IMG/VR virus record: IMGVR_UViG_3300001683_000016 | Location: 32,001-96,000 of that record | DNA: 64,000 nucleotides | Direction: 5' to 3' (one strand) | Source: a virus | The notes under the pieces: model-generated | Seen by the model: only the letters and a program-made list of their open reading frames with translations | Databases searched by the model: none | What the model was told of the DNA's origin: nothing | Program-made: the position numbers and the translations under genes | Part shown: positions 8,411 to 46,533 of the stretch, piece after piece | How the letters are laid out: the number at the start of each line of letters is the position of its first letter | How positions within the stretch are numbered: position 1 is the stretch's first letter

Positions 8411-8593
8411 TGCGCTCACTTCCTCGTAGTGTGATTCAGAATAGAGTCCGAGCATGATTTGGTCGCCGTTATCCACGGTGATACCACCATCGGGTTCAAG
8501 GATGGGGCGCGAAAGTTCGTGCTTGTTCCAATCAGGGAAGAGCGCATCGCGTATCATCTCAAACAATTCATCAGGGATGACAATGTCAGTCAT
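8408..8593 (-). CDS. Small hypothetical protein
   Basis: ORF track; ATGA overlap with ardC. Confidence 0.55.
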   Translation of the reverse strand: MTDIVIPDELFEMIRDALFPDWNKHELSRPILEPDGGITVDNGDQIMLGLYSESHYEEVSA

Positions 8594-9528
8594 GCGTCCA
8601 CCCCCATGAGGGATTTGAGTATGTAATCTGCGGCTGTCTGAGCACTACTAAACGCTTGACTGAGAGCCTTATCTTTATCTTTACACGCAGCCAACCATGA
8701 CTTAAGGTAGGCTTGACTGTTAGCATTATCCTCAACTACTGAGTCAGGTTTGAACTCTCCGCCTAGTGTGAGTGTCACGATTAACTGCCCCATTTCAGCA
8801 ATCAATTCTTCATAGGCATACTCAGGTGAACCAAAGGCAGACTTGAGTGGCCTCTCAACTCTGTTGACATGACCTGTACTATGAATAGCCTCATGGAATG
8901 CGGTCATTACTTCACCAATAGGTGAGATGAATGATTCATGTGGTGGCATTACAATATCATCTTTCTCTGACGAGTAGTATGCACGTACACCTTTGCGATG
9001 CAGGACAAGTGTATCCTGTGATGCTATGTAATCGTTGAAGTGAACCATCATCTCAGACTCAGGCACTACCTCAACCTCTTCTACATCAGGTGCTACATAA
9101 TCGACACATTGTTCAACACAAAATACAGTGTACCATCGTGTTAGCCATCTGCTGCGTGTCTCTTCTTCTCCGTCATCGTTCTCAACAATGAACTTACTAC
9201 GCTTGAAGAACTGTATGTTCACGCCATCACCATTAGTCAAGCCTTCTATTGAGTAACCTTTGCTTAATAATTGTTTACGAGTAGCAAAACGAAGGTCAGT
9301 CCATCCTCGTACCATACCCTCTATCCATAGTTGTACTATATTTCCACCTCGATATGCTTTCTTGCTAACCAAGTTATGTGGCATACTACCTGTACCACCA
9401 ACCCAAGGCTTGCGCCAAGGTAAGTTGTTGTCCGTTATAGCAGTGCTTAGGTTAGCAAACCATCGCTCTTGATTTTCCTGCTGCTTCATCTCTCCGTATG
9501 CCCTTTTCTGTTCTTTGTTCATTGTCAT
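8590..9528 (-). CDS. ardC: ArdC-like antirestriction protein (ssDNA-binding N-domain plus zincin-like domain)
   Basis: LPWRKPW, NLVSKKAYRGGN, FATRKQ, YTVF, AYY...DDIVMP, FHEAIHSTGH, FGSPEYAYEELIAE, AYLKSW, AQTAADYI. Confidence 0.9.
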   Translation of the reverse strand: MTMNKEQKRAYGEMKQQENQERWFANLSTAITDNNLPWRKPWVGGTGSMPHNLVSKKAYRGGNIVQLWIEGMVRGWTDLRFATRKQLLSKGYSIEGLTNGDGVNIQFFKRSKFIVENDDGEEETRSRWLTRWYTVFCVEQCVDYVAPDVEEVEVVPESEMMVHFNDYIASQDTLVLHRKGVRAYYSSEKDDIVMPPHESFISPIGEVMTAFHEAIHSTGHVNRVERPLKSAFGSPEYAYEELIAEMGQLIVTLTLGGEFKPDSVVEDNANSQAYLKSWLAACKDKDKALSQAFSSAQTAADYILKSLMGVDA

Positions 9529-11713: not shown

Positions 11714-12496
11714 TCACGATAGGAACTTAGCCATGTACGCCTTAGCGCCCTTGACTGTGCTTGCTTTGCTACCTAGTTGACGAGCCGCCGCGATGATTGC
11801 GTCGTCTGCACTCATGGCTGCATCACTTGTGATGGTGGTGTCTGCATCCACTTTCACGTATGTGCCTTGATACACGATTGCAAGTGCTAGTCTCTTTGCT
11901 TTCGTTTCTTTGTTCATCTTAAGGGTTGGCTGTCCGGTGTTCCACCAGTTAGCGCCAAAGTTGCATTTCTGAGCGCACCATAACTTTCGTGCTTTCTTCT
12001 CAGATACACATGCTCGACCTGCTCCTTCTTTGTCGGTTACGCCCTCTGCAAACCATACTCCGCCGTCTGCTTGTGCCTTAGCCAAGTCAACCTCACGCTT
12101 TGCGCTTTTGATGGCACGCTTGTCCTCTCTGCGTGCTCTGTTCAACCCGTATGCAAAGACGTTCACTTCGTTGCCTTTGTTCTTGCCACTCGTTAGAATG
12201 TGGGTCAGTTCCATGCCGTGAGCACTAGGTGTAAGACCTGATGCCGGTGACCAACCTGTACCTATGGTAGTTTGGCAAAAGCGTGCTAGTATGGCTAATG
12301 CTTGCTTAGGTGTGAGCGTGGTGTCTGCCACCTTCTCATCGTAGATGGGGTTAGGGTATGCACCTGTTACATCCCATCGCCCTATGCTCACCTTGGCTTT
12401 GCCTTTTCCTTTGCTGACAGCCATTAGGCTGCGCAAGAGCGTGGCAATACGCTCAATCATCGTTGTTTTCGCTACTGTATCATCAGTTGTCGTCAT
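11714..12496 (-). CDS. Basic Ala/Lys-rich protein, first gene of the early arm
   Basis: ORF track 11714-12523; start at MTTTDD (12496) follows GGAGG; has its own promoter and terminator. Confidence 0.75.
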   Translation of the reverse strand: MTTTDDTVAKTTMIERIATLLRSLMAVSKGKGKAKVSIGRWDVTGAYPNPIYDEKVADTTLTPKQALAILARFCQTTIGTGWSPASGLTPSAHGMELTHILTSGKNKGNEVNVFAYGLNRARREDKRAIKSAKREVDLAKAQADGGVWFAEGVTDKEGAGRACVSEKKARKLWCAQKCNFGANWWNTGQPTLKMNKETKAKRLALAIVYQGTYVKVDADTTITSDAAMSADDAIIAAARQLGSKASTVKGAKAYMAKFLS

Positions 12497-12520
12497 TTCA
12501 GATTCCTCCACACCCTCTTT

Positions 12521-12543
12521 CATTCATTGTTTAAGTAGTCAAT
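12521..12543 (-). promoter_or_regulatory. Early promoter-like motif copy 7
   Basis: cattcattgtttaagtagtcaat. Confidence 0.75.
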
Positions 12544-12577
12544 GTGGATTGAAGCCAAGAAAGAAAGAAATGGTTAG

Positions 12578-13058
12578 CATTACGCGGGTGTGCATTATGC
12601 AAAGCATTACGCCTTGTGTATAAGAAGAGGCATTTTTGCCCCAACCATACGGGTGGGGAATCCAAAGCGGTGCAAAGGGCTGGCGCTAAAGCGTGCTAAG
12701 TGTGAGGCGCGTTATGCCTAGCAGTACAGCGTTTATAGTGCCGCGACTTAGGTGCTTACGTGCATAGGTAAACGTACAAGCGTTACGCAAGGCGTAACGT
12801 GCGTTAGTCAAGCATTACGCTAGATTAACATGGCATTACGCTAAGAGCGTAATGTCCGACAGGCTCGCAGTACCCCATTACGCTAGAGCATTACGCTGGC
12901 TTAGCCGGAGCATTAGCATTACGCTATTAGCATTACGCTCTTATAGCCACACACAGCGCTTGAGCAAAAAAAATATTTTTGGTAAAAAAGCCCCTGCGTG
13001 TCTCATATATACAACAGTCAAGGTTTTAACATTACGCCAACTAAATATAACATTACGC
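12578..13058. repeat. CATTACGC iteron array with hairpins and AT tract (candidate ori, pac or terminus region)
   Basis: 10 exact + strand copies (12578, 12605, 12813, 12834, 12876, 12889, 12917, 12931, 13030, 13051), 1 reverse copy (12847), and an A/T tract at about 12966-12989, at the strand-switch point. Confidence 0.8.
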
Positions 13059-13070
13059 TGTCCGCTAATC

Positions 13071-13451
13071 ATGTCGGCGGCATTCGGTAATGCATGGAAT
13101 GTGCTCAAAGCGTTACCAAATCAGCAAGTTGAGATACCCGGTGCACGATATACTTCTCATGGGCCGCAGCCAGTAAAAACTATGCATCCGGGGATTGCTT
13201 CGTTGTTGGCGAGGAAGCCGGGTGCCAATATACAAAATCCTGATATGATTGATTCGCAAAATATGGAAATGCACATGAGTGGGGAAGAAAGGGGTGGTCC
13301 AGCGCAACTTTGGGACCCCGTTAATGAAAAAATGATAACATTACCTATGAGTGAATCGTCTATGTCTGATGTTCATATGAATGATTATGGCAAAAAGCCA
13401 AATTGGGCGCTTAACTCAGTAGGAAGATTGGCTAACGATGGTCAATCATAA
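13071..13451 (+). CDS. Tagged accessory protein 1 (MSAAFGNAWNVLK|...)
   Basis: C-terminal part of ORF 12852-13451; the ATG at 13071 begins the shared tag; TATA-like TAAATATAA about 25 nt upstream. Confidence 0.7.
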   Translation: MSAAFGNAWNVLKALPNQQVEIPGARYTSHGPQPVKTMHPGIASLLARKPGANIQNPDMIDSQNMEMHMSGEERGGPAQLWDPVNEKMITLPMSESSMSDVHMNDYGKKPNWALNSVGRLANDGQS

Positions 13452-13539
13452 GGTCCTAGATTCATTGGCGACTCATTTTTGTTCCATGTTAAAGAGTAAC
13501 GGGCGGCAGTTCAAAATAGAGTAACGCTATGTGAGGAGC

Positions 13540-14286
13540 ATGGTGGCAGCGTTCGACCAAGCGTGGGCTTTGCTGAAGGCAGTAGAGTTCGACCCTTATG
13601 CTAAGGACATAAAGGAGGCTCGCCCCTTCAAAGCATATCGTAGTATTCCGACGAAGTTCCTCGATGAGGTGCTTTCCGAAGGCATACAGCCAAGAAGTGT
13701 AGAGCCATGGACGGAAAGGATGCAGAGAAGCGGCCTCAAGCCTGAAACGAGCGCCAGCAAAGCCCATGTTTGGTCACCGAGTGACAAAGGAGTGTGGTCG
13801 TTCATGCATAAAAGAGGTGCTTTACCCAATACCAAAGGGCAACAAGAACTGAGAGAATCATGGCCTTATGCCCCTGTGAGTCATCCTGCTCTGTCTGCGC
13901 GGTATTTTGCTGATAACTTTAGTCGTCGGGCGGCAGAAATAGCAGAGACACCTGAACATATTAAAAGCAAAAAAATGCTTGATGGGGTAAAATCATCATC
14001 GACTATGCCCCCTCAGTCATTTTGGGACGAATATGCGAAACTGAATGACAATCTCCAACACTCGATAGTAGGTTCCACTATATTACCTCCGGGCAAGAGA
14101 TTCGAGGACTTGGATTGGCACAAGGGTCGTGACTATGCGACAAAACCTATACTAACGACAGACCCAATACCAGCGAGATATTTAGATGAGGCTATCCCGT
14201 TAGACTTTCAAGGAAACGAAATCCGTTATACACAAGGTAGTCGCATACCAGATAATTTTCGTAATGAATGGGGGTTTAACGAATGA
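13540..14286 (+). CDS. Tagged accessory protein 2, putative ADP-ribosyltransferase-fold domain
   Basis: MVAAFDQAWALLK tag; AYRSI...LDEVLSEGIQP, GVWSF, ARYFA, DPIPARYL parallel the ART/Tpt1-like pattern of 16473-16946. Confidence 0.55.
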   Translation: MVAAFDQAWALLKAVEFDPYAKDIKEARPFKAYRSIPTKFLDEVLSEGIQPRSVEPWTERMQRSGLKPETSASKAHVWSPSDKGVWSFMHKRGALPNTKGQQELRESWPYAPVSHPALSARYFADNFSRRAAEIAETPEHIKSKKMLDGVKSSSTMPPQSFWDEYAKLNDNLQHSIVGSTILPPGKRFEDLDWHKGRDYATKPILTTDPIPARYLDEAIPLDFQGNEIRYTQGSRIPDNFRNEWGFNE

Positions 14287-14927
14287 ACCCCTTCAACCAA
14301 GCGTGGCTTTTGCTGAAGTCCGAAATGCTGTTGTGGCCCAAACAACTCAACAATTACCGCAGCCCCGACTCTGCCAAGAGCAAGCCTGAATTGAGAATGC
14401 CGGGGCAGTTCAAGAAGCCGAGCGCAGCCGGATTCACTCAATTGTATCAGAAACCCGGTTTGGCTCGTTCATACGTGTCTCTTCCCAATATGGAACAACC
14501 GGGAAGTAGGATTGGTCTGAATAGCACTCTTAATGACCCCGCTATATCGGATAAGGACAAGGCAGGAGTCCAAGGAAGATATGATGAGCGTTTAGCCCAC
14601 AATGTGATGGGAACTGATGTACACGAGGATACGCATGTTGCGATGGATAGGATTGGGGAGACTTCGGACAATCCTTACCACAATGAGTTACCAGCCCACA
14701 TAGCAGAGACGCTTCAATTCACGAGAAGGCCGAGAGAAACGATAAACTCCAATGATGTGGTGCTTCAAGACCTCGATAGCGGCATGTCCCCTACTGAAGT
14801 CGCAGTCAAACGTGGAAAACAAGGAGCGATGATGCATCAACAGGTTAGTGGAACTGGACCCGATAATGGGATGTACACAACTGTAGGGCCGCAGAAGTTC
14901 ACCTATACGGGGGAACAGGGACAATGA
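14283..14927 (+). CDS. Tagged accessory protein 3, HExxH zincin-like metallopeptidase motif
   Basis: MNPFNQAWLLLK tag; VHEDTHVA followed by NELPA. Confidence 0.55.
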   Translation: MNPFNQAWLLLKSEMLLWPKQLNNYRSPDSAKSKPELRMPGQFKKPSAAGFTQLYQKPGLARSYVSLPNMEQPGSRIGLNSTLNDPAISDKDKAGVQGRYDERLAHNVMGTDVHEDTHVAMDRIGETSDNPYHNELPAHIAETLQFTRRPRETINSNDVVLQDLDSGMSPTEVAVKRGKQGAMMHQQVSGTGPDNGMYTTVGPQKFTYTGEQGQ

Positions 14928-15982
14928 ACCCCTTCGACCAAGCGTGGGTTTTGCTGAAACAAGAAGATAATAGAGATGAGATGATTGAAGGTGCATACCC
15001 TCACGAAACTCATTTGTGCAAACATTGTGGCTATCCCATCTATCACCATTGGCAACAAGGGCAAGGTGATGGAAGTCACCCACCGCAAGAGGTGTGGAGT
15101 GGTGAAGATGATGAAGGCGGAAACTGTTCAAGCCCAAGTGGATTTTGTGAGCCGGGAGAATCTCTCGGTAGGACATATCAAAGTGGTGAACCAATTGAGG
15201 CCACACCCGAATCGCACCCGAATCAAATCTACTTGAATGGGCGATTGGTTGATGCGAATGATTGGACAGACGAGCATGAAGCAGAAGTGAATGCTAACAA
15301 AGACCCGGAATCGGGCCAGCCGCTAGTCAATTGGAATGATACTTGGGATTGGAATAAGGATATTCAAACAGGCGAACCTATGGAAGTCGCTATGCGGTTG
15401 TTGAAGGATGATGACCCTCTGCAACATGTTGGGACATTTCTCAATCAATTAACACCGGATGATACGGGGGTTGAAAGATTAGGCGACCATACTGTTCACT
15501 TTGAAGGATTTACTGATATGTGCAATCTGTCAATCACACCTAATTGCCCTGCTGAACAATTACACCAAGAAGTGTGGGATGACTTTGATAAGCGACAAGG
15601 GCAAGAAGCCATCCATAGAGGTAAATGGGGTACGGAAGAAAACCCTACTATTTATTCTGTATATCATACACCGCAAGATGAGGTCAAAACAGGCGAACCT
15701 ATGGACATCGCCATGCGGTTGTTGAAGGGGCGTAACCTTTCACCAGCAGCACGTAAACACAAGTTGGAATACGATACAAAATACGAGTCTAACCCTAAAA
15801 GGGTCAAATATAGAGTTGACCTGAATCGTGAAAGACGGCGCAGGGGCATCTATGGTTCGGGCAACCGTAAAGATGTGAGTCATACCGAAGGTGGTAAACT
15901 CACCTTAGAAAACGAACACGATAATAGGGCTAGGCACTTTAAGGGTAAAGGCACACTTCGCAGAGTTAAGGTGAAGAAATGA
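14924..15982 (+). CDS. Tagged 3-module polyprotein-like accessory protein (Cys/His module, acidic module, basic HNH-like module)
   Basis: MNPFDQAWVLLK tag plus internal TGEPMEVAMRLLK (15368-15406) and TGEPMDIAMRLLK (15689-15727). Confidence 0.75.
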   Translation: MNPFDQAWVLLKQEDNRDEMIEGAYPHETHLCKHCGYPIYHHWQQGQGDGSHPPQEVWSGEDDEGGNCSSPSGFCEPGESLGRTYQSGEPIEATPESHPNQIYLNGRLVDANDWTDEHEAEVNANKDPESGQPLVNWNDTWDWNKDIQTGEPMEVAMRLLKDDDPLQHVGTFLNQLTPDDTGVERLGDHTVHFEGFTDMCNLSITPNCPAEQLHQEVWDDFDKRQGQEAIHRGKWGTEENPTIYSVYHTPQDEVKTGEPMDIAMRLLKGRNLSPAARKHKLEYDTKYESNPKRVKYRVDLNRERRRRGIYGSGNRKDVSHTEGGKLTLENEHDNRARHFKGKGTLRRVKVKK

Positions 15983-16476
15983 ACCCCTTCAACCAAGCGT
16001 GGCTTTTGCTGAAGGCACCCATTTATGAAACAGGTATTCCCAACATCAATTTTGTTACACAAGGCCCATTTCCAGACCCTTTTTGGAGGGAAGAGGAAAA
16101 TGTATACGGCTACGTTCCTGATGACCCAAAAGGGAATGCGTATGGCTATTATGATGAAGGAAATGAGGTTGGGGAGATTCAACATATGACACCCGGTGAA
16201 TACGGAAAAATGACTACTGGTGAGGAAAAGGGTGGTATGTATGTTGACGCATTGGGAAGAAAAAAGTCTCCAAGAGAGTCAGATGACACTTTCTATCAAG
16301 AGTTGATGGATAGGGCACAAGCGGGAGAGAACGTCAAGTTCGGTATGCCGTATGTTTTTCCCGATTTTGAGCCTGAAACATATCATGATGGGAGACATAG
16401 AATGGCTGAACTCTTCGCTCGTGGTCATGGTGATACACCCTTACCAGTCAAAGTCATGAGGGGGACTCACGGATGA
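15979..16476 (+). CDS. Tagged accessory protein with ParB/Srx-like domain
   Basis: MNPFNQAWLLLK tag; MTPGEY...MPYV...HDGRHRMA...LPVKV (ParB DGxHR motif). Confidence 0.65.
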   Translation: MNPFNQAWLLLKAPIYETGIPNINFVTQGPFPDPFWREEENVYGYVPDDPKGNAYGYYDEGNEVGEIQHMTPGEYGKMTTGEEKGGMYVDALGRKKSPRESDDTFYQELMDRAQAGENVKFGMPYVFPDFEPETYHDGRHRMAELFARGHGDTPLPVKVMRGTHG

Positions 16477-16946
16477 ACCCCTTTGACCGAGCGTGGGCTT
16501 TGCTCAAACAAGATACGCGTCAAAGTACGTTAGGTGAGTATCATCCTGATTTTCCTTCCCCATATGGCGATGTGAAGTATTACCATGGGACAACAGTAGA
16601 GCCAGCGTCGAGAATTAACTTTGAAGGGTTGAAGCCGACGGAACCTTCCACGCTAGGGTGGAATCGAAAACTAAGTGGAATGTTTCCTAAAGGTGTATAT
16701 GCAACCGATAATAAAGATGTAGCAGCCGATTATGCCCACACGAGAGGGCAAAATAGGAATCAACAGGGTCGAATATTTGGAATAAGGGAAGGGGCACCCC
16801 AACAAGCAAATCCTACAACGCCGTTAACGCCGAATGCGCCCGATAACGTATTTCGATATGACGAAAAAATACCGAGACAGTATCTTACTCCGGTAGATTA
16901 CCCAAGTGAGAAACTTGTCCCATATTTTAGGTACGGAGATGAGTGA
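16473..16946 (+). CDS. Tagged ADP-ribosyltransferase-fold protein with PIP-box-like motif
   Basis: MNPFDRAWALLK tag; RQSTLGEY; YYHGT...EGLKP...GVYAT...AADYA...IPRQYL. Confidence 0.7.
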   Translation: MNPFDRAWALLKQDTRQSTLGEYHPDFPSPYGDVKYYHGTTVEPASRINFEGLKPTEPSTLGWNRKLSGMFPKGVYATDNKDVAADYAHTRGQNRNQQGRIFGIREGAPQQANPTTPLTPNAPDNVFRYDEKIPRQYLTPVDYPSEKLVPYFRYGDE

Positions 16947-17795
16947 ATGAGTGACTTCTCCATTTACGAAGTTGGTCCACGCGACGGTCTACAGAGCGCC
17001 GACACAATAACATCAACATATGACAAAGTAACCCTGATACGAAAAATTGCTAAGGCCGGTATCAAAAATATCGAAGTTGGCTCAATGGTCAATCCTGACA
17101 GAGTTCCTAATATGGCCGATAGCGATGTGGTTTTTCTCAAGGTTCAAGATTTAGCGCCTGAGCACAATCTCGGTGTCTTAGTGCCTAATCGCAGGGGAGT
17201 TGAGAGAGGAAAGGCTGTAGGTGTGGAAAAGTTCAATATTTTTTTCTCGCCGTCCAACTTTTTCAATGTCAATAACTTCGGAAAGAGCCTAAATACGATT
17301 TTTGCTGAATATTGTGGTGCATTAGACGGAATCCGACCCGAAAACGTTAGAGTATACCTTTCTACAGCCTTTGGATGTCCCATAATAGGTGAAATACCGC
17401 AAGAAGATATGTTAAAAACCATGGAATGGGCTAATACGCTGGGTGATACTATCGTTTTGTCTGATACAATTGGCAATGCTAACCCGTCCTTAATTCGTAA
17501 AGTGATGCGTTTAACTGACAGAAAAATAGATGCTAAGATAGCACTACATCTACATCATGGATTTAGAGAGGGTAGAATGTATGATAACTTGTCTGCTGGC
17601 TTTGATTGTGGGATAACTCAGTTCGATTCAAGCATTGGTGGGATGGGCGGATGTCCGTTTATACCGGGTTCAGGGGGCAATTTAGCCACTGAACAATTAG
17701 TACGCTGGGGTAGTAAAGAGAATCTTGATTGTGGTGTTACGATTAAAGATTTAGAACCGCTAATGAAGTTTGTAAATACTAGAATAAAAGTATAG
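16947..17795 (+). CDS. hmgL: Hydroxymethylglutaryl-CoA lyase (DRE-TIM metallolyase)
   Basis: IYEVGPRDGLQ, VPNMADS, LVPNRRG, STAFGCP, LSDTIG, HLH, GGMGGCPF..G..GNLATE. Confidence 0.9.
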   Translation: MSDFSIYEVGPRDGLQSADTITSTYDKVTLIRKIAKAGIKNIEVGSMVNPDRVPNMADSDVVFLKVQDLAPEHNLGVLVPNRRGVERGKAVGVEKFNIFFSPSNFFNVNNFGKSLNTIFAEYCGALDGIRPENVRVYLSTAFGCPIIGEIPQEDMLKTMEWANTLGDTIVLSDTIGNANPSLIRKVMRLTDRKIDAKIALHLHHGFREGRMYDNLSAGFDCGITQFDSSIGGMGGCPFIPGSGGNLATEQLVRWGSKENLDCGVTIKDLEPLMKFVNTRIKV

Positions 17796-17807
17796 CGTTA
17801 ATAGCAA

Positions 17808-18629
17808 TCATGCTACGGCGACCTGCCCGCCAGTTCCTGTACTGGCTTTTGCTCGACCTGCTGATGACAAATCTTCAATTCTTTTCATTTCGGCTTGTTG
17901 TTTGGCTTGATTTTGCTGTTTATGCTGTTCTAGTTGATTAAAACCGTATGCGCCTGTTGCTGACGCTACGCCAATTGGAGTGTTAGTTTTTTGACTATCG
18001 TCGTAATTTTTCTGCGCATCTTGCAATTTTTCATTCATTTTATCGCTTTGTGATTGAGCGGCATTGACATTTTGTTGAGCGATATTTTCGGTTTCATAAG
18101 CATCCATTACTTCGGGTGTAAAAGAGGTTTGACCAGTATCAAAGCCTGTACCTTCTGTTAGTTTGGTAGTTTCCATACTCGGTGTTTCTGTCGCTGCATC
18201 TTCTGCTCTTTGTGATAATTGTCCAAACGGATTATTTTCACCCGATTGAGATTCAAAGCCTGTACCACCATATTGTGTTAAGTCTGCATCTTCACCGGGC
18301 AAATCCGCAAATCTTTTCTTTGCTGCTCCACTTTTATAATTAGGACCGCGAGAATAGGAAACACGCCCTGCTTGTCCAGTCGTCATTGATGCTGTTTGTG
18401 CAGCCTTACTTGCATCGCGTGCAGCCTTCAAACCTTTCCCCGCTTGCGCTGCTTTTCTCCCAGCCAATAATGCTCTACCACCTTGAACTCCGACCATAGC
18501 ACCTCTTGCCGCAGCACCTGCTGCTAGTGAAGCGCCACCCGTAAAAGGTGCAGCCAGTATAGAGGCTGCTGTTAATGCAGTTCCTAATTTACCTTTCACC
18601 ACTAAAACAGAAGGTGTGGCGGCTCCCAT
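17808..18629 (-). CDS. Gly/Ala-rich protein with hydrophobic hairpin and coiled coil (putative membrane-inserting or ejection protein)
   Basis: Start at MGAATPSVLVVK after a GGTGGGAG SD; LAAPFTGGASLAAG; the only inverted gene in the array. Confidence 0.6.
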   Translation of the reverse strand: MGAATPSVLVVKGKLGTALTAASILAAPFTGGASLAAGAAARGAMVGVQGGRALLAGRKAAQAGKGLKAARDASKAAQTASMTTGQAGRVSYSRGPNYKSGAAKKRFADLPGEDADLTQYGGTGFESQSGENNPFGQLSQRAEDAATETPSMETTKLTEGTGFDTGQTSFTPEVMDAYETENIAQQNVNAAQSQSDKMNEKLQDAQKNYDDSQKTNTPIGVASATGAYGFNQLEQHKQQNQAKQQAEMKRIEDLSSAGRAKASTGTGGQVAVA

Positions 18630-18789
18630 ACTCCCACCTGTATTGCGGTGATGATGAGTGGTATGGAAAGAAGAAGTTGCAACAACTTGAACCTGCGGAA
18701 AGGGAACCACCACGAATACAGCACGAAGCGTAACATATTAGAAGTATCGCACTAGTAGAGAAGGTGTTAGCAGTACGGCGGAGAGCAAA

Positions 18790-19053
18790 ATGAAACCAAT
18801 AGATGCAGCAATAAAACTTCTAAAATCTACCCCTTCTTCTCAAGTCGCTATGCAACACGATATGCCTTCTTACATGGAAGAAGCGCTAAATCAAAGCGGT
18901 AAAACTCGTTCTGATAGCCGAAAAAAGAAAGACAAGGCTACAAAGTTACGTCAAAAAATAGACGACCATGAAGAAGATTCGCAAATAATTGATTTCTATA
19001 GACAGAATCACCCTGAGTGGTTTGATTCATTTAGAGGTGGCGAAGGTGAGTAA
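18790..19053 (+). CDS. Tagged small accessory protein (MKPIDAAIKLLK|ST)
   Basis: Variant of the tag. Confidence 0.65.
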   Translation: MKPIDAAIKLLKSTPSSQVAMQHDMPSYMEEALNQSGKTRSDSRKKKDKATKLRQKIDDHEEDSQIIDFYRQNHPEWFDSFRGGEGE

Positions 19054-19579
19054 ATTGAATAAAAGACCAAAGAAAGGTGTTGCAGTAGTTATTAGCATCG
19101 GTCCTAAAATGAAAACTAAGCCAACGGATGCTGCTACTCCTGAAATGCCAATAAAGAAGTATGGTTCAATGCCAATGAAAAAGGCAATGGCTGTTCTAAA
19201 ACAAAGGGGTAAATATGTACCCACAACTGCTGAAGATGAATATGTTGCATCAAATTCTGAAAATCGACATCATCCTATGAGTAATAGAGAAAAGGATGAG
19301 GCGTGGAAAGAGGCGCAGTTAGATGGAAGATATGATGAAGATTACTATCCCGATGAGGATGAAACACCTATATGGAATGATAATCGACAACCAATCGGTA
19401 AACCTGAGTTTGGTAATGAAGGTGCACGTGAAGCAGAAATGAATCAAGCAGAGCGTGCTGCAATAATGGCAGAAGGTATGCCTGAGGGGCGTAGACCTCG
19501 TATTCCACCTCGAACAGAAGGTTTTGACCCTAATAAGCAAGGTCGAGTGCCAAGAGATATTTTTCAAAATAGAAGGTAA
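19046..19579 (+). CDS. Accessory protein with internal tag variant (PMKKAMAVLK|Q)
   Basis: ORF 18989-19579; GTG at 19046 follows GAGGTGG. Confidence 0.6.
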   Translation: MSKLNKRPKKGVAVVISIGPKMKTKPTDAATPEMPIKKYGSMPMKKAMAVLKQRGKYVPTTAEDEYVASNSENRHHPMSNREKDEAWKEAQLDGRYDEDYYPDEDETPIWNDNRQPIGKPEFGNEGAREAEMNQAERAAIMAEGMPEGRRPRIPPRTEGFDPNKQGRVPRDIFQNRR

Positions 19580-19583
19580 GTGA

Positions 19584-19811
19584 ATGAGTGCTTTCACAAA
19601 ATCTTGGCTATTTCTCAAAACCGAGCCAATTGATATGCAGCAAGGCTCAGATGGAACTTGGCGTGCACCTCAGGAAGATATAACACCAGAAAAAAAATTG
19701 TGGCAACAAATCCAAGCAAGAAACGCACAGGCTAGGCAAAACTTGCAGAAACCTGCACAAGTAGCACAACCTAAACCTACACCACAACCGGGGTATTCAG
19801 GATGGATGTAA
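19584..19811 (+). CDS. Tagged small accessory protein (MSAFTKSWLFLK|TE)
   Basis: Tag variant; Gln/Pro-rich. Confidence 0.65.
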   Translation: MSAFTKSWLFLKTEPIDMQQGSDGTWRAPQEDITPEKKLWQQIQARNAQARQNLQKPAQVAQPKPTPQPGYSGWM

Positions 19812-19812
19812 A

Positions 19813-22695
19813 ATGGTATTCAATAAATCTTGGAACTATTTGAAATCAATAAGCGATTGGTCGTCTACTGATAGTTTATATGGTAATGAGTATGAAGATG
19901 AACCTAGTATAGAAAGAAGAAATACTCCAACTATGGATAACTCGTATCAAAAAATCTTACCTCAAGATGACCCAAGATTAGATTATAGAACTGGTTGGAA
20001 AGGTGTAGAACCCGTTAGGGCTATTCGTGTACAATCAAATCATCGAAAGGCAGGTCAACCCGTACCTCAAGACGGCTCTAATATAAATTATGAACAAGGT
20101 GACCCAAAGTTACCGCCAAAGATTCCTGAGATACCTGATGACGATGACCCTGTTTGGGATGACCCCGACTCACGATGGAGTAAAGACCCCAAATCGGGTT
20201 CAAGATATTATATGTCGGGTAAATATGAAGATGGTAAGTATATTTCTCGTAAAAACAAGCATTTTGTTGATTTGAAAAATGCAAAGGCTGGAACTTGGGC
20301 TGCAAACAATACTGTTGGGGATATTAATAATTTATATACTCATAACCAACCTGATAAGTTGGTCTATATTCGTGGGAGTCCCGATAAATATGGTAAAGTA
20401 CACAGAAGGGATAGTGACGAAGCGGATGAAGGTTTAGCAGAAATGTTTATCGAACATAAAAAAGATATTTCACCTGAAAACCTTGTTGAAGTACCGTTAA
20501 AGACTCATTATAGAAACCAAACAAAAGATATGGGTACTCCTGACCTTGGGCATAATAGACGCTCAAAAAGTGATAAAAGCGGGCGAGTTAGTCGTTGGAG
20601 TGATAAACCTGTACCTTGGGGCTACAGCCACAAGAAAAAGGGCGAACCAATGGACATAGCCTTCCAGTTGCTCAAGATGTCTGCTGATGAAGCAGATGAG
20701 TTGGAAGAGCAAATGCTTTCTGATATGGAAAGAGGGACCAGTAATCCACGCTCACGAAGAAAACAGCGAAGTATGGGCGAAAGGGAATCAAAGGCATCTA
20801 TCCATAATTTTCCCGGTTCATCATCTCGTAGAGAAATGTGGGATGAAAAGCAGAAAGAAAGAGACTGGGAACGATGGGGAAAGAGACATGCTGAAGATAA
20901 AGCAATTGCAGGAAAAGACCTACCCTCATATCATGGGTTTGGTAGCGATAGGCTAAGAGAAATCCATCCGGGTGATAGAGGGAACGATTTCTCATCTATG
21001 AAACCGGGAAAATATGAGTTTGACGGTGTAGGTAGGGAAGAAAGACCCATACCTTTTGAGCCGGGTGATAACCTTATGGAGTGGTTACAGCCCGGATACA
21101 ACGAATCTAACAACCTAAGACTATTCAGGGATAAGGATGACTCTAAACATGAGTGGCAACCAAAACCGTGGACAACAAGTGGCCCTATCAATCATGTTCC
21201 CGAAACCCAAGAATGGGTAAACAACCCTTTTGATGAAGAACCAACTTTTCACGGGATACCATTCAATGAAGATACGGGTTTCACAACAGGTGAACCAATG
21301 GACATAGCCTTCCAGTTGCTCAAGGGAAAGACAAGGCAATCTACTCTTTGGGGTTACGACCCAAAAATGGTAGAGAACTTACTCGCAGAAGATAACAGTA
21401 ATATTTTCATCGCCGCTAAACCCGGAAACGATGATATGCCCGATGATGAACAAAATGAGCGTTCGGATAAAATGCTACAAGACCTCGCCGCACTCAAAGA
21501 GGAACATGGTCACTTCGATATAACCAGTGCCACAGGTAGAGCGCAGTGGGACGCAGAACCATCTTTCATGCTCACTAACGTGCCTGATAGTGCAAGGGAT
21601 TCCATTAATGAGATAGCGGAAAGATACGGTCAGGAATCCATGGGAATCTCGGAAAAGGGGGAGAAAGGGGTGAACTACGTTACACCGGAGGGGGAGGTAA
21701 AGGACAAGTTCAGTAGTATGGAGATGCAGGAAAAACCGGAGTACTCTACAGATTTTCCGAGTAGTCAGAGGCTGGCTTTTACGGGTTGGCAGGAAGCAAA
21801 TAAGGCTAATCCAATGCACATAGCCTTCCAGTTGCTCAAGGGTTGGGCAGGTGGTGTTAGAGGTATAGGTAATAATGCCACGGACAACATTTATCATTAT
21901 CCACACGAATTAGATTACGGCGCGATAGACGAATATATGGGTGAGAATCCTGATGCTACTCTCGGTAGTATGGTAACGCCGTATCTACAAGGACAGTTTA
22001 CAAATAATCCTCCTCTCTTTCCAGAATTAAGCACAAATCCGCCAACCTATCAAAGTGAAAGACCTACTCAATTACAAAGCACAGTTCCGGCACCTTTTCC
22101 ACAAACCCCCGAACAATCTAAAGGTGTTCAAAATCTCATTGATGATGGATTTGAAAACTATGAATCTAGAGATAGAACGAGAAAACCCCATTACGATAGC
22201 ATGAATAATGCAGTCAGAGTATTATCTAGAAATTTAAGAAGAAACCCTGCATACAATTTTACGCCGCCGGGACGATTACGAGGCACTAAGGGACAGGGCG
22301 GTAGAAGTAGGCAAATGCAGAACATGAAACTAAGAAGTTTGTTAGATACTCCTGTATCTCAAAGTATGGCAGAGATGAACATACCGAAACAAGGAATACC
22401 AATTGCGGCAGGCGAACCAATGAACATAGCCTTCCAATTGCTCAAAGAGCGCAAGTCACCAGCAGCATTTGCTCACAAGTTAGAGTATGACAAGCAATAT
22501 CAAAAGACACCTAAGCGCGTAAAGTACCGTGAGCAATTAAACGCAGAGCGTAGGAAGCGTGGCATATACGGTAAGGGTGGTGCGGATGTTAGCCACACAC
22601 AAGGTGGTAAACTCACTCTTGAAAGCGCACATGCTAATAGAGCAAGACATTTCAAAAACAAAGGCACTCTCCGCAGGGTCAAGGTGAAAAAATGA
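19813..22695 (+). CDS. Tagged 5-module polyprotein-like accessory protein
   Basis: MVFNKSWNYLK tag plus four (GE/AN)PMxIAFQLLK linkers at 20641, 21289, 21805 and 22411; module 3 DUF3293/SAM-lyase-like, module 5 HNH-like. Confidence 0.8.
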   Translation: MVFNKSWNYLKSISDWSSTDSLYGNEYEDEPSIERRNTPTMDNSYQKILPQDDPRLDYRTGWKGVEPVRAIRVQSNHRKAGQPVPQDGSNINYEQGDPKLPPKIPEIPDDDDPVWDDPDSRWSKDPKSGSRYYMSGKYEDGKYISRKNKHFVDLKNAKAGTWAANNTVGDINNLYTHNQPDKLVYIRGSPDKYGKVHRRDSDEADEGLAEMFIEHKKDISPENLVEVPLKTHYRNQTKDMGTPDLGHNRRSKSDKSGRVSRWSDKPVPWGYSHKKKGEPMDIAFQLLKMSADEADELEEQMLSDMERGTSNPRSRRKQRSMGERESKASIHNFPGSSSRREMWDEKQKERDWERWGKRHAEDKAIAGKDLPSYHGFGSDRLREIHPGDRGNDFSSMKPGKYEFDGVGREERPIPFEPGDNLMEWLQPGYNESNNLRLFRDKDDSKHEWQPKPWTTSGPINHVPETQEWVNNPFDEEPTFHGIPFNEDTGFTTGEPMDIAFQLLKGKTRQSTLWGYDPKMVENLLAEDNSNIFIAAKPGNDDMPDDEQNERSDKMLQDLAALKEEHGHFDITSATGRAQWDAEPSFMLTNVPDSARDSINEIAERYGQESMGISEKGEKGVNYVTPEGEVKDKFSSMEMQEKPEYSTDFPSSQRLAFTGWQEANKANPMHIAFQLLKGWAGGVRGIGNNATDNIYHYPHELDYGAIDEYMGENPDATLGSMVTPYLQGQFTNNPPLFPELSTNPPTYQSERPTQLQSTVPAPFPQTPEQSKGVQNLIDDGFENYESRDRTRKPHYDSMNNAVRVLSRNLRRNPAYNFTPPGRLRGTKGQGGRSRQMQNMKLRSLLDTPVSQSMAEMNIPKQGIPIAAGEPMNIAFQLLKERKSPAAFAHKLEYDKQYQKTPKRVKYREQLNAERRKRGIYGKGGADVSHTQGGKLTLESAHANRARHFKNKGTLRRVKVKK

Positions 22696-23063
22696 GTAAT
22701 TATCCGTCATACCCAACGACACCTCCTAAAAAATGTGAATATTGTAATGGTGCTGGAATTATTGACCCTTATGGTGATGAAGAGGATGTGGCTCAGGCTG
22801 ACCCAAGATATCCACATGAAACATGTTGGAAGTGCAAAGGAACAGGTATACAGACAGAATGGTCATTTAACCCATATATGCCTTCTTTCCACCCCCCTTC
22901 TTTCCCCCCCCCTTCTTTCCACCCCCCTTCTTACCACGCCCCTCCCCCGTCCAAAATGGAATTAGGAGAGCCAACAATTAATTTTGACCCTGAATGGCAA
23001 GAAATGAATAAAAGTTCTAGTGTTGCATTTTCATTAGCGTGGAACTTACTTAAATCAGAATAA
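22692..23063 (+). CDS. CxxCxGxG (DnaJ-type) Zn-finger protein with C-terminal tag (AFSLAWNLLK|SE)
   Basis: CEYCNGAG...CWKCKGTG; PSFHP repeats. Confidence 0.7.
   Translation: MSNYPSYPTTPPKKCEYCNGAGIIDPYGDEEDVAQADPRYPHETCWKCKGTGIQTEWSFNPYMPSFHPPSFPPPSFHPPSYHAPPPSKMELGEPTINFDPEWQEMNKSSSVAFSLAWNLLKSE
22881..22940 (+). repeat. 4 x 15-nt pyrimidine-rich tandem repeat (CCTTCTTTCCACCCC)
   Basis: Direct reading; encodes PSFHP/PSFPP/PSFHP/PSYHA. Confidence 0.9.
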
Positions 23064-24162: not shown

Positions 24163-24879
24163 GTGGTCGCTGCGAGTGGTAGTGTATTAGTAGGCGTGGC
24201 CTTGTATGGTAAACAAGCATACAATAATTGGAAATCTCGAAGAGTAGGGATTTATGGTGCAACTATGGTTGGTAAGACAACTTTAGACAAATATATGACT
24301 ACTCCGGGCGAAATGGAAGAAATACCTGAACATGAAAGAACCACGCATTTTAAGTTGGTTACTCGCTATATACTTCCTAAACCTACTCGTAAAAGAGTTC
24401 GCTGGGAAGGTGAAAGGAGGGTTATTCATTCTGCCGACATAGGTGGCGAAGAGCGTTTTTGGAATCTTTGGATTGATGATATGGTAACTAGACAATGTGA
24501 ATACGTTATATTCATGTTTGATGATAGAGCGTTTCAAGGAGGGGATGAGGCTTTACAGCAAGTAGGAGGTTTTAGATTCTTAGTTGATAGTATAATAAAT
24601 AGAAATTATAGGTATAGAAACTGGAAGAGTTGGAGAAGGGGTAAGAGGTATGTGCCTAAGATGATATTACTAGTTGCAAATAAAGCAGATAGATATTTTG
24701 ATGCTAAAGCGGCACAGTTATGGAGAGAGGGTAGAATTGGAGAACATAAGATATTTGACCCTTTTAGAGAAGACCTAATTAGATTACAAAAAGCAGGTGT
24801 ACCAACGCGCCGTTCATTCATGGCAACACGTATAGGGTGGAACGTTGAGAACACATTATTAGAGATGATAGATTACTGA
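24163..24879 (+). CDS. Ras/Arf-like small GTPase
   Basis: G1 GATMVGKTT, G2 RTT, G3 DIGGEERF, YVIFMFD, G4 NKAD, degenerate G5 FMAT. Confidence 0.85.
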   Translation: MVAASGSVLVGVALYGKQAYNNWKSRRVGIYGATMVGKTTLDKYMTTPGEMEEIPEHERTTHFKLVTRYILPKPTRKRVRWEGERRVIHSADIGGEERFWNLWIDDMVTRQCEYVIFMFDDRAFQGGDEALQQVGGFRFLVDSIINRNYRYRNWKSWRRGKRYVPKMILLVANKADRYFDAKAAQLWREGRIGEHKIFDPFREDLIRLQKAGVPTRRSFMATRIGWNVENTLLEMIDY

Positions 24880-38171: not shown

Positions 38172-38318
38172 TTGAGTAAAGTGTACGTCAAAAAAGGCGT
38201 AGCACAAATGGAACCCTGCAAGATGTGTGGAGCAACTGCGTATGAAGGTTGTAAACAAGCAAAAGGGCTTTCCTTAGGCGAATGTCCATATTACCAAAGG
38301 TACAATACCGGAGGTTGA
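38172..38318 (+). CDS. Small Cys4 protein (48 aa, TTG start; not in ORF track)
   Basis: MSKVYVKKGVAQMEPCKMCGATAYEGC...CPYY...GG*; fills the gap. Confidence 0.55.
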   Translation: MSKVYVKKGVAQMEPCKMCGATAYEGCKQAKGLSLGECPYYQRYNTGG

Positions 38319-38329
38319 GAGGGGATGTT

Positions 38330-43966: not shown

Positions 43967-45334
43967 GTGCTCGGTAGTCAACAACTATTCAGAAACGGCG
44001 ATAGTCCAATCAGTATCCTCAAGGGTGCTAATGACCTCATCGTTGCTGGTTATGCCAGTGTGGAAGTTGTAGACAAGCAAGGCGACGTAATAACAAAGGA
44101 GGCATTGAAACAAGCATTTCGGAAATTCATGGAAAATCCGTCATACAGAAACGTTCAATTGGCTCACAGTAATATACAAATTGGAGACGTTGTACCGAAT
44201 TATACAGATAATGAAGGGAGGTTGTGGAAAAGCGAAGTCGATGATGTCGGAATGTTTGTAGTTGTAAAATTACGAGACGACATCGAGAAAGCAAAAGAGG
44301 TTTCAGCAGAAATCAGAAAAGGCGTTCTCAGAGGATTCAGTATCGGTGGTCAAGCGTTTAAGAGAGTCAGAAAATCAGACCCAAAACGAGGAGATTACCA
44401 AGAAATAAGTAAACTGGAACTACACGAAATAACGATTTGTGAAAAAGGCATCAATCCCGAAGCAACATTTAGCATATTAAAAGAAGATAATAACACGGAA
44501 GTGAATAAAATGACAGAAACAGAAAATGATAATGAAATGATGAAACAACTTGGTAGCGTACTTTCACGTTTAGAAGGTCGGCTTGATGACATGGAGAAGG
44601 GCGAAAAACCTGCTTTCCTTGAAGAGAAGAAAGACGATAAGAAAGATGACAAGAAGAAAGAAGAAGTAGCGGCAGTAGAGGAAGTAGAGGAAGTAGAAAA
44701 GTCAGAATACTCTGACGTAATTTCATCCGATTACCTAAACTGGATGGAAGATACTCTAAAGAGTGGCGGTGTTGATACTGTCAGCGCACGTACACACTTC
44801 GACGACTTAGAGAAAGCCAACCTAGGCTCTACACCTGAAGAAATTCAGGCTAACCATAAAGGTTTAACTGGTCAAGCACCGGGTAGAACGCAAGAAGGTG
44901 GAAACCCATCAACCGGTGCTATTGCAGCAACCACAGGTGGAGGAGTGAAGAAATCAGATTTCATTAACCCAGCATCACTTACAGACTCAGATATTGAGTC
45001 TGCATATGAAGTATACAAAGCGGCGGCTCTTGAAGAAGAGTTCCGTGGCTCTCTAGAAAATAATTTCGCATCTCGATACGCTTCAGAGCGTACAACAGAA
45101 GTTGCAAAGGCAGAAGCAGCAGCATATGATGCACGCGGACCTCTAGATGAGATAAACAAGGCAATCAGTGCACTTTCAGAGCGCATTGAAACAATCACTA
45201 CTCCAGCAGAAACTGGAGAAGAAATCGCAAAATCAGATGCTGATGCACCAACACTAACAGTTCCTTCAACAGAAGATTTAGCAAAAATGTCATGGGATGA
45301 AGTTCATAACTTGGCATCTAAGGCTTTTGAGTGA
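43967..45334 (+). CDS. Prohead protease (HK97-type) fused to scaffold
   Basis: VAGYAS..VVDKQGDVI, LAHS, GFSIGG, LHEITIC..GINPEATF; acidic coiled-coil C-terminal half; directly upstream of MCP. Confidence 0.9.
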   Translation: MLGSQQLFRNGDSPISILKGANDLIVAGYASVEVVDKQGDVITKEALKQAFRKFMENPSYRNVQLAHSNIQIGDVVPNYTDNEGRLWKSEVDDVGMFVVVKLRDDIEKAKEVSAEIRKGVLRGFSIGGQAFKRVRKSDPKRGDYQEISKLELHEITICEKGINPEATFSILKEDNNTEVNKMTETENDNEMMKQLGSVLSRLEGRLDDMEKGEKPAFLEEKKDDKKDDKKKEEVAAVEEVEEVEKSEYSDVISSDYLNWMEDTLKSGGVDTVSARTHFDDLEKANLGSTPEEIQANHKGLTGQAPGRTQEGGNPSTGAIAATTGGGVKKSDFINPASLTDSDIESAYEVYKAAALEEEFRGSLENNFASRYASERTTEVAKAEAAAYDARGPLDEINKAISALSERIETITTPAETGEEIAKSDADAPTLTVPSTEDLAKMSWDEVHNLASKAFE

Positions 45335-45363: not shown

Positions 45364-46533
45364 ATGGCACGAAATTACGTACGAACAATAACAGACATGG
45401 AAAGATACTACTATGGAGCAGGTAACGCAATGGGTTACTCATACTCAGGTAGTGAATTACTCAAGGCCGACAGCCCTATGCTGTCAACAACAGGTGGTAC
45501 ATACCAAGCAATCTACGGTCGCAAAGTATGGTCACAATTAAATCAAGAGTTTAACGCATTCTCTATCCTACCAAAGAAACCATGGGACCGAAGTGGATGG
45601 CGAGTTATCACCGATAGACCGAACAGCGGAGCAATTGCTGGTAGCGGTATTGCTGAGAACGGCACACTACCTGAAACTATTAAACCAGCGTTCCAACATG
45701 TGGCAGCAAAACCTAAGACTATCGCTCACACATTCGATATGTCTGAAACTGCTATCTTCCTTGCTGACAAGGATGACGGAATGGGCGACATACGCTCAGT
45801 CATGAAAGAGGAAATGGGTAAACATCACGCAGAAGTCATCAATAAGATGATGTGTGGTGACGTTGACACAGTAGCAGGCAACAACTTCGAGTCTCTTGAC
45901 CGAGTTACTGCTGGATATGCTGCTGGTGCTGCATCTAAGACTGGACTAAGTACAGACGGTGATGCAATAAACGCAAACGGTGACCTAGACATATACAGTA
46001 TTAGCAGAAGTGCAAACACATGGTCTAACGCTGAAATGAGTGTAAACGCAGTAGGTGGGACGCAAACCGATAGAACACTTTCTCTAGACTTATTAGATGA
46101 GATGTTCCAAAAGATGTGGATTCGTGGTGGAAACCCGAAAGTTATGTTAACTGGATATGATACTCTAATGAGAATCCAGCAACTTCTACAATCACAACAG
46201 AGGTTCATGGAAGAGAAGAGAGTCACCCCTACCTATAACGGTGTAAAGGGTGTACCCGGAATCGAGGCTGGTTTCATCGTAGCAACATACAACGGTGTAC
46301 CAATCATTCCTACAAAGAACATGGCAACAGACACATTATCAAGAGTTTACTATCTAGATACAGATTACCTACACTTTAGCACAGCAATTCCAACACAATA
46401 CTTTGAGAGTGGAATCGAAACTGGTGACCCATTTGCAATCAACAGATTAGGCCAAGAAGGACTATACCGTACCATGGGAGAACTATGGACAACTTTCTTC
46501 GGAGCACAAGGGAGCGTAAGAGACCTCAAATGA
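45364..46533 (+). CDS. Major capsid protein (HK97 fold)
   Basis: Position and size; VWSQLNQEFNAFSILPKKPW, GIAENGTLP, ESLDRV, ATYNGVPII, GSVRDLK resemble archaeal tailed-virus MCPs. Confidence 0.9.
   Translation: MARNYVRTITDMERYYYGAGNAMGYSYSGSELLKADSPMLSTTGGTYQAIYGRKVWSQLNQEFNAFSILPKKPWDRSGWRVITDRPNSGAIAGSGIAENGTLPETIKPAFQHVAAKPKTIAHTFDMSETAIFLADKDDGMGDIRSVMKEEMGKHHAEVINKMMCGDVDTVAGNNFESLDRVTAGYAAGAASKTGLSTDGDAINANGDLDIYSISRSANTWSNAEMSVNAVGGTQTDRTLSLDLLDEMFQKMWIRGGNPKVMLTGYDTLMRIQQLLQSQQRFMEEKRVTPTYNGVKGVPGIEAGFIVATYNGVPIIPTKNMATDTLSRVYYLDTDYLHFSTAIPTQYFESGIETGDPFAINRLGQEGLYRTMGELWTTFFGAQGSVRDLK

Follow-up and report, generated by a model that had tools for sequence, protein, structure and literature searches.

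A twelve-residue peptide ending in lysine on unrelated proteins of a magrovirus-like archaeal virus: a possible signal for capsid loading and proteolytic release

Why should proteins that otherwise have nothing in common carry one and the same short peptide? The question is raised by a 64,000-nucleotide stretch of the IMG/VR virus record IMGVR_UViG_3300001683_000016 (the whole stretch is referred to below as the window), in which a cluster of genes at positions 13071-23063 encodes proteins of different sequence that share a tag of about twelve residues ending in Leu-Lys (Table 1). The window also codes for a portal, a large terminase subunit, tail genes, an HK97-fold major capsid protein and a prohead protease of family S78. 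The capsid protein is about 31-34% identical to its counterparts in the haloarchaeal viruses HVTV-1, HCTV-1 and HCTV-5, and since such capsid relatedness has been published as the mark of magroviruses, which infect Marine Group II archaea (PMC5434244), the virus was assigned as magrovirus-like. The reading best supported by our data, still a tentative one, is that the tag directs proteins into the capsid and is cut after its Lys by the S78 protease.

The tag follows the twelve-residue motif [M/G]-x-[P/A]-[F/M/I]-[D/E/N]-x-[A/S]-[W/F/M]-x-[L/V/I/F]-L-K. Within the window it occurs 18 times, ten copies lying at or near an N-terminus, seven being internal and one C-terminal, all on the strand of the structural genes; a 19th copy, on the other strand at genome position 20419, lies outside the window and brings the number of unrelated protein modules bearing the tag to about 19. 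All eleven copies listed in a first-pass annotation of this DNA were found in place, and seven were added to them, six within the cluster and one outside it (28523-28558). The internal copies in the open reading frames (ORFs) of 352 and 960 residues follow the variant GEPM(D/E/N)(I/V)A(F/M)(Q/R)LLK. A chance origin is excluded by two results. The core pattern, back-translated to DNA, matched the window 14 times, as against 1.03 ± 0.80 times in 100 shuffles (maximum 3), and a profile built from 273 distinct tags of related contigs, when run over all six frames of the 115-kb genome, left a clean gap between the 19 copies (scores 14.7-35.4) and the next segments (12.0, containing a stop codon, and 8.7). 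The seed pattern had left three positions of the Trp-type tags unconstrained (Pro/Ala, Phe/Met/Ile and Asp/Glu/Asn), and these positions carry about 3 bits each. Information reaches 3-5 bits at the constrained positions of the tag and falls to 0.3-1.1 bits right after the Lys, which is invariant, bearing out the earlier remark that similarity stops abruptly after this residue. In the AF2 model of the ORF at 16473, the tag is a helix (residues 3-14) followed by a low-confidence linker.

The tag is not confined to one genome. Related loci, about 2 Mb in all, were collected from IMG/VR by means of the capsid protein, the 960-residue protein and a DNA pattern for P-F-(D/N)-x-A-W-x-x-L-K. These contigs hold 460 tags (296 N-terminal, 143 internal, 11 C-terminal and 10 unclassified), and the sequences that follow them cluster by single-linkage blastp into 187 payload families, many of which are found as tagged genes on their own as well as within chains; the first-pass idea of a single tag on otherwise unrelated payloads holds for the relatives as well. 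Five further complete genomes (102-109 kb) have 3-10 Trp-type tags each, 36 of 36 on one strand, with no match to a reversed control pattern. The capsid proteins of the tag-bearing genomes tested are 75-100% identical to that of the window, all with ELLK. No tags, and no gene for the lyase-like enzyme discussed below, were found in a more distant genome (L290/G007, IMGVR_UViG_3300027852_000040; capsid protein 51% identical; 83% complete). Three ORFs of the latter (starts 1824, 7160 and 11826) have in common a different N-terminal stretch, MIDE.. .. FGYYS..L.. KS.KKIVCICN.CGKER, which is perhaps homing-endonuclease-like. In 596 Gb of prokaryote genomes the same DNA pattern gave 111 single scattered matches versus about 139 estimated by chance, and because these matches are only at chance level, no cellular motif of this sequence can have been the source of the tag. 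The data support a tag that is specific to this virus lineage and selected as a peptide. No description of the tag, or of an N-terminal motif or polyprotein of this kind, was found in the magrovirus papers searched (PMC5434244, PMC11706807) or in a search of the literature on tailed viruses of archaea, in agreement with the impression of the first-pass reader.

The copies are also alike as DNA. Tags of non-orthologous genes have 35-46 nucleotides in common at 85-100% identity, and the Leu codon at position -1 is CTC in about 46% of the tags versus 3% in structural genes. In the closest relative, L081, homology blocks break off precisely at the Lys codon in the tag of the following gene, as does the 99%-identical block over the ORF at 13540, and module 2 of the 960-residue chain is absent from L081, having been inserted or deleted at two breakpoints that both fall within tags. 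Because the block ends and both breakpoints fall at tags, these must also be regarded as joints for cassette exchange. That they are primarily DNA recombination joints, the conserved peptide being a by-product, is scarcely credible to us. Every synonymous codon is in use at the invariant Ala, Leu and Lys; the conservative replacements A/S, W/F/M and F/M/I require unrelated codons; the reading frame and the position relative to the protein end are maintained across the 460 copies, with the tag carried on one strand and in one frame only; and no tags were seen out of frame or in non-coding DNA. Judged from these codon and frame patterns, the tag is both a peptide and a DNA element, but selection acts on the peptide.

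Table 1. Tagged genes, head genes and an embedded untagged gene; positions are those of the window unless stated otherwise
Feature	Position	Strand	Tag and remarks
Window	bases 32001-96000 of the 115,554-bp record (115.5 kb)		magrovirus-like archaeal tailed virus
Tagged ORF, 126 aa	13071..13451	+	N-terminal tag MSAAFGNAWNVLK at 13071-13109, score 22.9; first gene past the divergent intergenic region
Tagged ORF, 248 aa	13540..14286	+	tag MVAAFDQAWALLK at 13540-13578, score 35.4
Tagged ORF, 214 aa	14283..14927	+	tag MNPFNQAWLLLK at 14283-14318, score 31.3
Three-module chain, 352 aa	14924..15982	+	N-terminal tag 14924-14959; internal tags 15371-15406, 15692-15727
Tagged ORF, 165 aa	15979..16476	+	tag 15979-16014; ParB-like payload, DGRHR motif
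Tagged ORF, 157 aa	16473..16946	+	tag 16473-16508; ADP-ribosyltransferase-like payload
HMG-CoA-lyase-like gene, untagged	16947..17795	+	PF00682 1.5e-25; NF004283 7e-63, below cut-off; embedded in the tag cluster
Tagged ORF, 87 aa	18790..19053	+	Ile-variant tag MKPIDAAIKLLK at 18790-18825, score 14.7
ORF, 156 aa	19109..19579	+	near-N-terminal tag SMPMKKAMAVLK at 19166-19201, score 22.7
Tagged ORF, 75 aa	19584..19811	+	tag MSAFTKSWLFLK at 19584-19619, score 19.7
Five-module chain, 960 aa	19813..22695	+	N-terminal tag 19813-19845; internal tags 20641-20676, 21289-21324, 21805-21840, 22411-22446
Cys-rich ORF, 123 aa	22692..23063	+	C-terminal tag SVAFSLAWNLLK at 23019-23054, score 24.6; then SE and the stop codon
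Conserved protein, 466 aa	28109..29509	+	internal tag 28523-28558; upstream of the terminase
S78 (HK97-type) prohead protease with scaffold-like C-terminal region	43967..45334	+	PF04586 5e-8; gene callers use the same 455-aa frame
HK97-fold major capsid protein	45364..46533	+	PF17236; Foldseek matches HK97, SU10, T5 and Mic1 capsids
Tagged ORF, 222 aa	genome 19748-20416 (L283:7748-8416), outside the window	-	N-terminal tag MTIHDAWAFLK

What the tag is attached to is less easily named. Most payloads belong to no recognisable family, and the labels first given to some of them (ADP-ribosyltransferase or ART, ParB, zincin, SAM-lyase, HNH) turned out to be sub-threshold leads or readings of motifs, not established assignments. 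For the ART-like payload at 16473, Pfam gave PARP (E 0.013) and ART-PolyVal (E 0.093), both below cut-off, the Foldseek matches listed were weak and fell in the ART superfamily (PARP family, KptA/Tpt1 and Arr; E 2.6e-3 to 0.13), and H-G-T, Y and E columns are conserved across 11 relatives. The payload at 15979 had no Pfam match; the only leads, from atlas features and structure, pointed to ParB_N and ParB/Srx clusters. The basic last module of the 352-residue chain (net +16) is HNH-like (phrog_6437, E 2.3e-16, residues 274-342), as is the basic module 5 of the 960-residue chain (phrog_6437, 9e-19), whose module 3 shows a weak likeness to DUF3293/SAM-lyase (Pfam E 0.008 and 0.087, with S-AdoMet_lyase at E 0.0023 for a relative). 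The payload at 14283 may be a zincin, to judge from its HEDTH motif; it had no Pfam, PHROG or NCBIfam match and a single relative among the tagged modules, and as the family is this rare, the protein is an unlikely candidate for a general processing protease. The ORF at 13071 matched nothing in Pfam or PHROG, and relatives begin a tagged gene at the same place. Relatives keep the tag of the ORF at 18790 as MNPIDAAINVLK and NIPINCA(I/M)SLLK, and those of the ORF at 19109 have SMPMKKAW(S/G)ILK. Sequence searches of three payloads against PDB chains returned nothing meaningful. Among 30 payloads of relatives searched with Pfam, only NUDIX exceeded the cut-off, with HD_4 just below it and a weak SAM-lyase match; the NUDIX hydrolase (L114:2241-2801, PF00293 3.4e-22) is tagged at its N-terminus and a second time seven residues short of its C-terminus. 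G+C is 0.47 where the tag cluster begins (12000-16000), compared with 0.35-0.44 in the remainder of the window.

Who, then, reads the tag? Genes left of about 12.5 kb (SNF2 helicase, ArdC-like protein) are on the minus strand, and from 13 kb on all genes are on the plus strand, heading to the head and tail genes. The main tag cluster has the replication-side genes on one side and those for the GTPase, basic protein, terminase, portal, protease and capsid protein on the other; in relatives, additional tagged ORFs stand between terminase and portal and immediately behind the capsid gene. Of the 45 tags in three fully mapped genomes, 44 are on the structural strand, the tagged genes having the structural or late orientation. 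This position and strand bias support loading into the capsid. So does the conserved tagged 466-residue protein beside the packaging genes, in which residues 1-150 (net -5) are followed by the tag and by a disordered basic module of 316 residues (net +42, pI 11.5; pLDDT 0.42 for the atlas model of the protein). The tag is internal in 15 of 15 homologous modules found, and we regard the protein as a candidate DNA-associated internal protein. The internal proteins of phage T4 are likewise basic and tagged, being very basic proteins that are masked and then released inside the head (PMC9026906). The payload types that can be named here (ART-, ParB-, HNH- and weakly SAM-lyase-like, with NUDIX and HD in relatives) are of kinds that phage heads are known to carry or predicted to carry (PMC5512222).

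Three neighbours of these genes deserve mention in their own right. The ArdC-like anti-restriction protein (8590-9528, minus strand) is untagged and matches ArdcN (1.8e-17) and the zincin MPTase-PolyVal (4e-26). A small GTPase-like protein (24163-24879; Pfam Roc E 0.002 and MMR_HSR1 E 0.027, both below cut-off) is encoded in a block of membrane and Q-rich proteins immediately after the tag cluster and, along the best-aligned stretch, is 65-68% identical to its counterparts in two other complete genomes. Between terminase and portal, in the slot where relatives have a tagged ORF, lies a 327-residue ORF (34273-35256) with a weak LAGLIDADG match (E 0.0056).

If the capsid is the destination, signs of processing after Lys may be sought in the capsid protein and the protease themselves. 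The capsid segment SELLK34|ADSPML is a probable maturation site, as judged from models and alignments. Residues 18-33 are disordered in the AF2 model and confidence climbs from about residue 35; in some 120 relatives (30-56% identity) the Lys column is largely conserved (K, sometimes R or Q), the preceding hypervariable stretch varies in length, and the residues after the Lys column keep the pattern (A/T/S)-D-(A/D)-P-x-L-x-T-T. At the corresponding alignment position the HVTV-1 capsid protein reads MSK|AD. When about 86 kb of the 102-kb HVTV-1 genome were scanned in a simple way for leaders with the ending (S/L/I/V/M)K|(A/S)D, nothing comparable emerged. In the protease, ISILK19|GA precedes the catalytic domain and TFSILK172|ED ends it, and relatives with an intact N-terminus have a hypervariable lead and then hydrophobic-x-hydrophobic-(L/I/V)-K before this domain. 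With the last six profile positions, TFSILK172 ranks 4th of 8712 structural-protein hexamers. The best such match among the structural proteins is APAILK (K1066) in an 1879-residue ORF (38282-43921) between portal and protease, which has no match in Pfam or PHROG and occupies the slot of the 1313-residue 'zeta toxin' gene of HVTV-1. A conserved segment at the scaffold C-terminus (MSWDEVHxLA), considered as the model that the tag might mimic, ranked 607 of 8712 with the tag profile and was rejected.

The tags themselves offer a further sign. At P1', the residue right after the Lys, small or polar residues dominate and Pro occurs in one of 317 distinct payload starts, versus 29-50 of 317 at each of the positions P2'-P6'. 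A candidate enzyme is also at hand: the virus encodes an HK97-type protease, a family for which cleavage after Lys or Arg has been published (PMC8569155). In the HK97-like phage phi12, the capsid protein is cut after R128 and the island protein Ccm after K87, the basic P1 residue being, according to the authors, the only feature common to the two sites (PMC8569155). A complex prediction of the protease-scaffold, the capsid protein and a 50-residue tagged N-terminus, each with a separate alignment, gave an ipSAE of 0.00, which is evidence neither way.

Several observations weigh against loading followed by cleavage, and they concern the cut most directly. The (L/I)LK endings noticed at first reading in capsid K34 and protease K19 and K172 are indeed present; these sites fail both the full and the 8-residue tag profile, so that only (L/I)LK is common to them and the tag, and LLK by itself turns up 8-22 times in each reading frame of the window. 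The segment NPEATFSILK is presumably the last strand of the S78 fold and conserved for that reason. Pro avoidance at P1' could stem from helix capping or from other structural causes. Cleavage, finally, cannot be required for the 11 C-terminal tags, that of the window and ten in related loci, which are followed by 0-4 residues, the Lys being the final residue in two of them. Because these tags need no cut, docking must be the primary role and cleavage an added step if the capsid reading is right.

It may then be asked whether the tag does more than dock, that is, bind the capsid interior or the scaffold and never be cut, the chains staying intact as beads on a string. The free choice of N-terminal, internal and C-terminal positions, the C-terminal tags that end on the Lys or within 1-4 residues of it, the prediction of the tag as a self-contained helix and the want of any likeness to the capsid and protease sites beyond LLK would all be accounted for, and encapsulin cargo peptides work in just this way, loading their cargo without cleavage. 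We nonetheless consider docking alone improbable, as the invariance of the terminal Lys, the exclusion of Pro at P1', the order of a mildly acidic front, tag and very basic module in the 466-residue protein, and the published preference of HK97-type proteases for K/R fit processing better.

A second kind of objection comes from two individual genes. The first-pass annotation had expected that a profile scan of related viruses would reveal many tagged ORFs with variable payloads and none among early or replication genes. The first part was borne out by the 460 copies on 187 families; the second was not. One tagged ORF, of 222 residues, is on the replication-side strand about 2.4 kb from a clamp-loader gene; it is kinase-like by eye (a GN-x-D...D-x-N stretch), and its ortholog in the genome G005 starts with MTESAFNHIQ, a decayed remnant of the tag. 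Such an ORF would suit a non-capsid hub, in which a host or viral protease, a chaperone, or a membrane/export or degradation system reads the tag and the tagged proteins act in the infected cell. That the link to the capsid is itself inferred, that the cluster in the window genome lies upstream of the core head module and not within it, and that a small-GTPase and membrane operon follows the cluster also favour such a hub. We regard it as unlikely, given the strong strand and position bias, the tagged ORFs that relatives have between terminase and portal and immediately following the capsid gene, and the tagged basic protein beside the terminase, which fits a DNA-associated virion component; moreover, the motif is at chance level in cellular genomes, so it is no copy of a host motif with this sequence.

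The other gene is untagged and encodes an HMG-CoA-lyase-like enzyme; in each of the six complete genomes examined it falls inside the tag cluster or no more than about 6 kb away. Most simply, it would be a metabolic gene, which may act on the mevalonate and lipid pathway of the host. Its constant company, together with the failure to find it in the tag-less G007 and the invariance of the tag Lys, would also agree with the Lys or the helix being a modification site recognised by an enzyme encoded in the cluster, this protein being one candidate. We hold this to be very improbable. The six genomes represent one virus lineage, which gives the co-occurrence little weight, and G007 is only 83% complete; besides, lyases of the DRE-TIM class use small acyl-CoA or keto-acid substrates and are not known to act on proteins, and the enzyme class itself makes the proposal unlikely.

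Returning to capsid loading with cleavage, the whole process might run as follows. The tag would be a portable address peptide, a short amphipathic helix of the form Pro/Ala-Phe-Asp-x-Ala-Trp-x-hydrophobic-Leu-Lys, which marks any payload fused to it for inclusion in the assembling procapsid and which could work at either terminus or as a link from one module of a chain to the next. Within the procapsid, the Lys-X bond would most likely be cut by the S78 protease-scaffold, releasing the N-terminally tagged cargo and splitting the 352-, 466- and 960-residue chains into their modules. The cargo, presumably made up of fast-changing enzymes (ART-, ParB- and HNH-like, with NUDIX and HD in relatives) and of the conserved basic disordered protein, would lie with the DNA and enter the host alongside it, and the 36-nucleotide tag would double as the homology for cassette swapping. 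Put as one statement, which we advance with slightly more reserve, magroviruses, which rank among the most abundant viruses of ocean archaea, may use a single 12-residue loading signal for an HK97-fold capsid to pack about 190 rapidly exchanged payload families and a DNA-associated basic protein, which would be cut free after Lys by the head protease and delivered with the genome, the same 36 nucleotides serving as a recombination joint; such a cargo-tag system would be without precedent in archaeal viruses and in combination with an S78 protease.

Marine Group II archaea and their viruses are uncultured, and there is next to no knowledge of the means by which these viruses gain control of the host cell. 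Should the tag be a mark of virion cargo, the first proteins to enter the cell could be listed from sequence only, and the list of about 190 families, mostly orphans, would be enriched for likely functions in host takeover and counter-defence and would point to the archaeal defences that they answer. The loading principle of T4 would be extended to archaeal viruses and to the HK97-type protease family, and a very short tag would become available with which foreign proteins could be brought into HK97-fold shells. Should the capsid reading prove wrong, a specific reader must still exist for a motif that is retained on hundreds of unrelated proteins.

Several known systems invite comparison. Encapsulin shells were among the structural matches of the capsid protein. 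In encapsulins a short terminal peptide sends diverse cargo into an HK97-fold shell and no cleavage is needed; unlike the tag described here, their consensus is Gly/Ser/Leu-rich and mostly C-terminal, and there is no protease, portal or DNA. Phage phi12 offers a related protease family, a basic P1 residue and a cut at the start of the capsid N-arm (capsid R128|L129, Ccm K87|Q88), but cuts of this type remove the delta scaffolding domain from the capsid protein only, and no cargo tag is known there (PMC8569155). In the giant phages SPN3US and phiKZ, many proteins of the head interior are reported to undergo processing by the prohead protease and to be ejected into the host, whereas the protease family and the motif are others, the propeptides are longer and more varied, and no single short portable tag is reported for them (PMC7411985, PMC10052503).

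Polyvalent proteins resemble the chains. As described by Iyer et al. (2017, PMC5512222), they combine unrelated effector modules, among them ART, ParB-like, zincin and NUDIX-type ones, in one polypeptide encoded beside virion genes, and are predicted to be packaged, injected and sometimes processed. They are defined there by two to fifteen unrelated domains; the 960-residue ORF has five modules and the 352-residue ORF three, both on the structural strand upstream of the terminase. In our case, however, the domains are mostly orphans with sub-threshold matches, there is no fusion with MuF or the portal, and the modules are joined by one repeated 12-residue sequence that the passages of the study consulted do not describe.

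Another close parallel is the capsid-targeting sequence of T4, carried by IPI-III and Alt and removed by gp21 (PMC9026906). There as here, a peptide of about 10-12 residues is common to unrelated, fast-evolving proteins and ends at a putative protease site, and the cargo includes basic proteins and an ADP-ribosyltransferase-like enzyme; Alt even has propeptides at both ends (PMC9026906), like the doubly tagged NUDIX enzyme of a relative. The two peptides have no sequence similarity, and the T4 protease, of family S77, cuts after Glu (L/I-x-E), whereas the enzyme here is S78 and the end residue Lys. Unlike in T4, the tag also links one module to the next within long chains and is found at C-termini where there is nothing to cut off, the virus has an archaeal host, and the system is known from its sequence alone. 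With a different protease family, a different cleavage residue and a different sequence, the tag system is an analogue of the T4 system and not a member of it.

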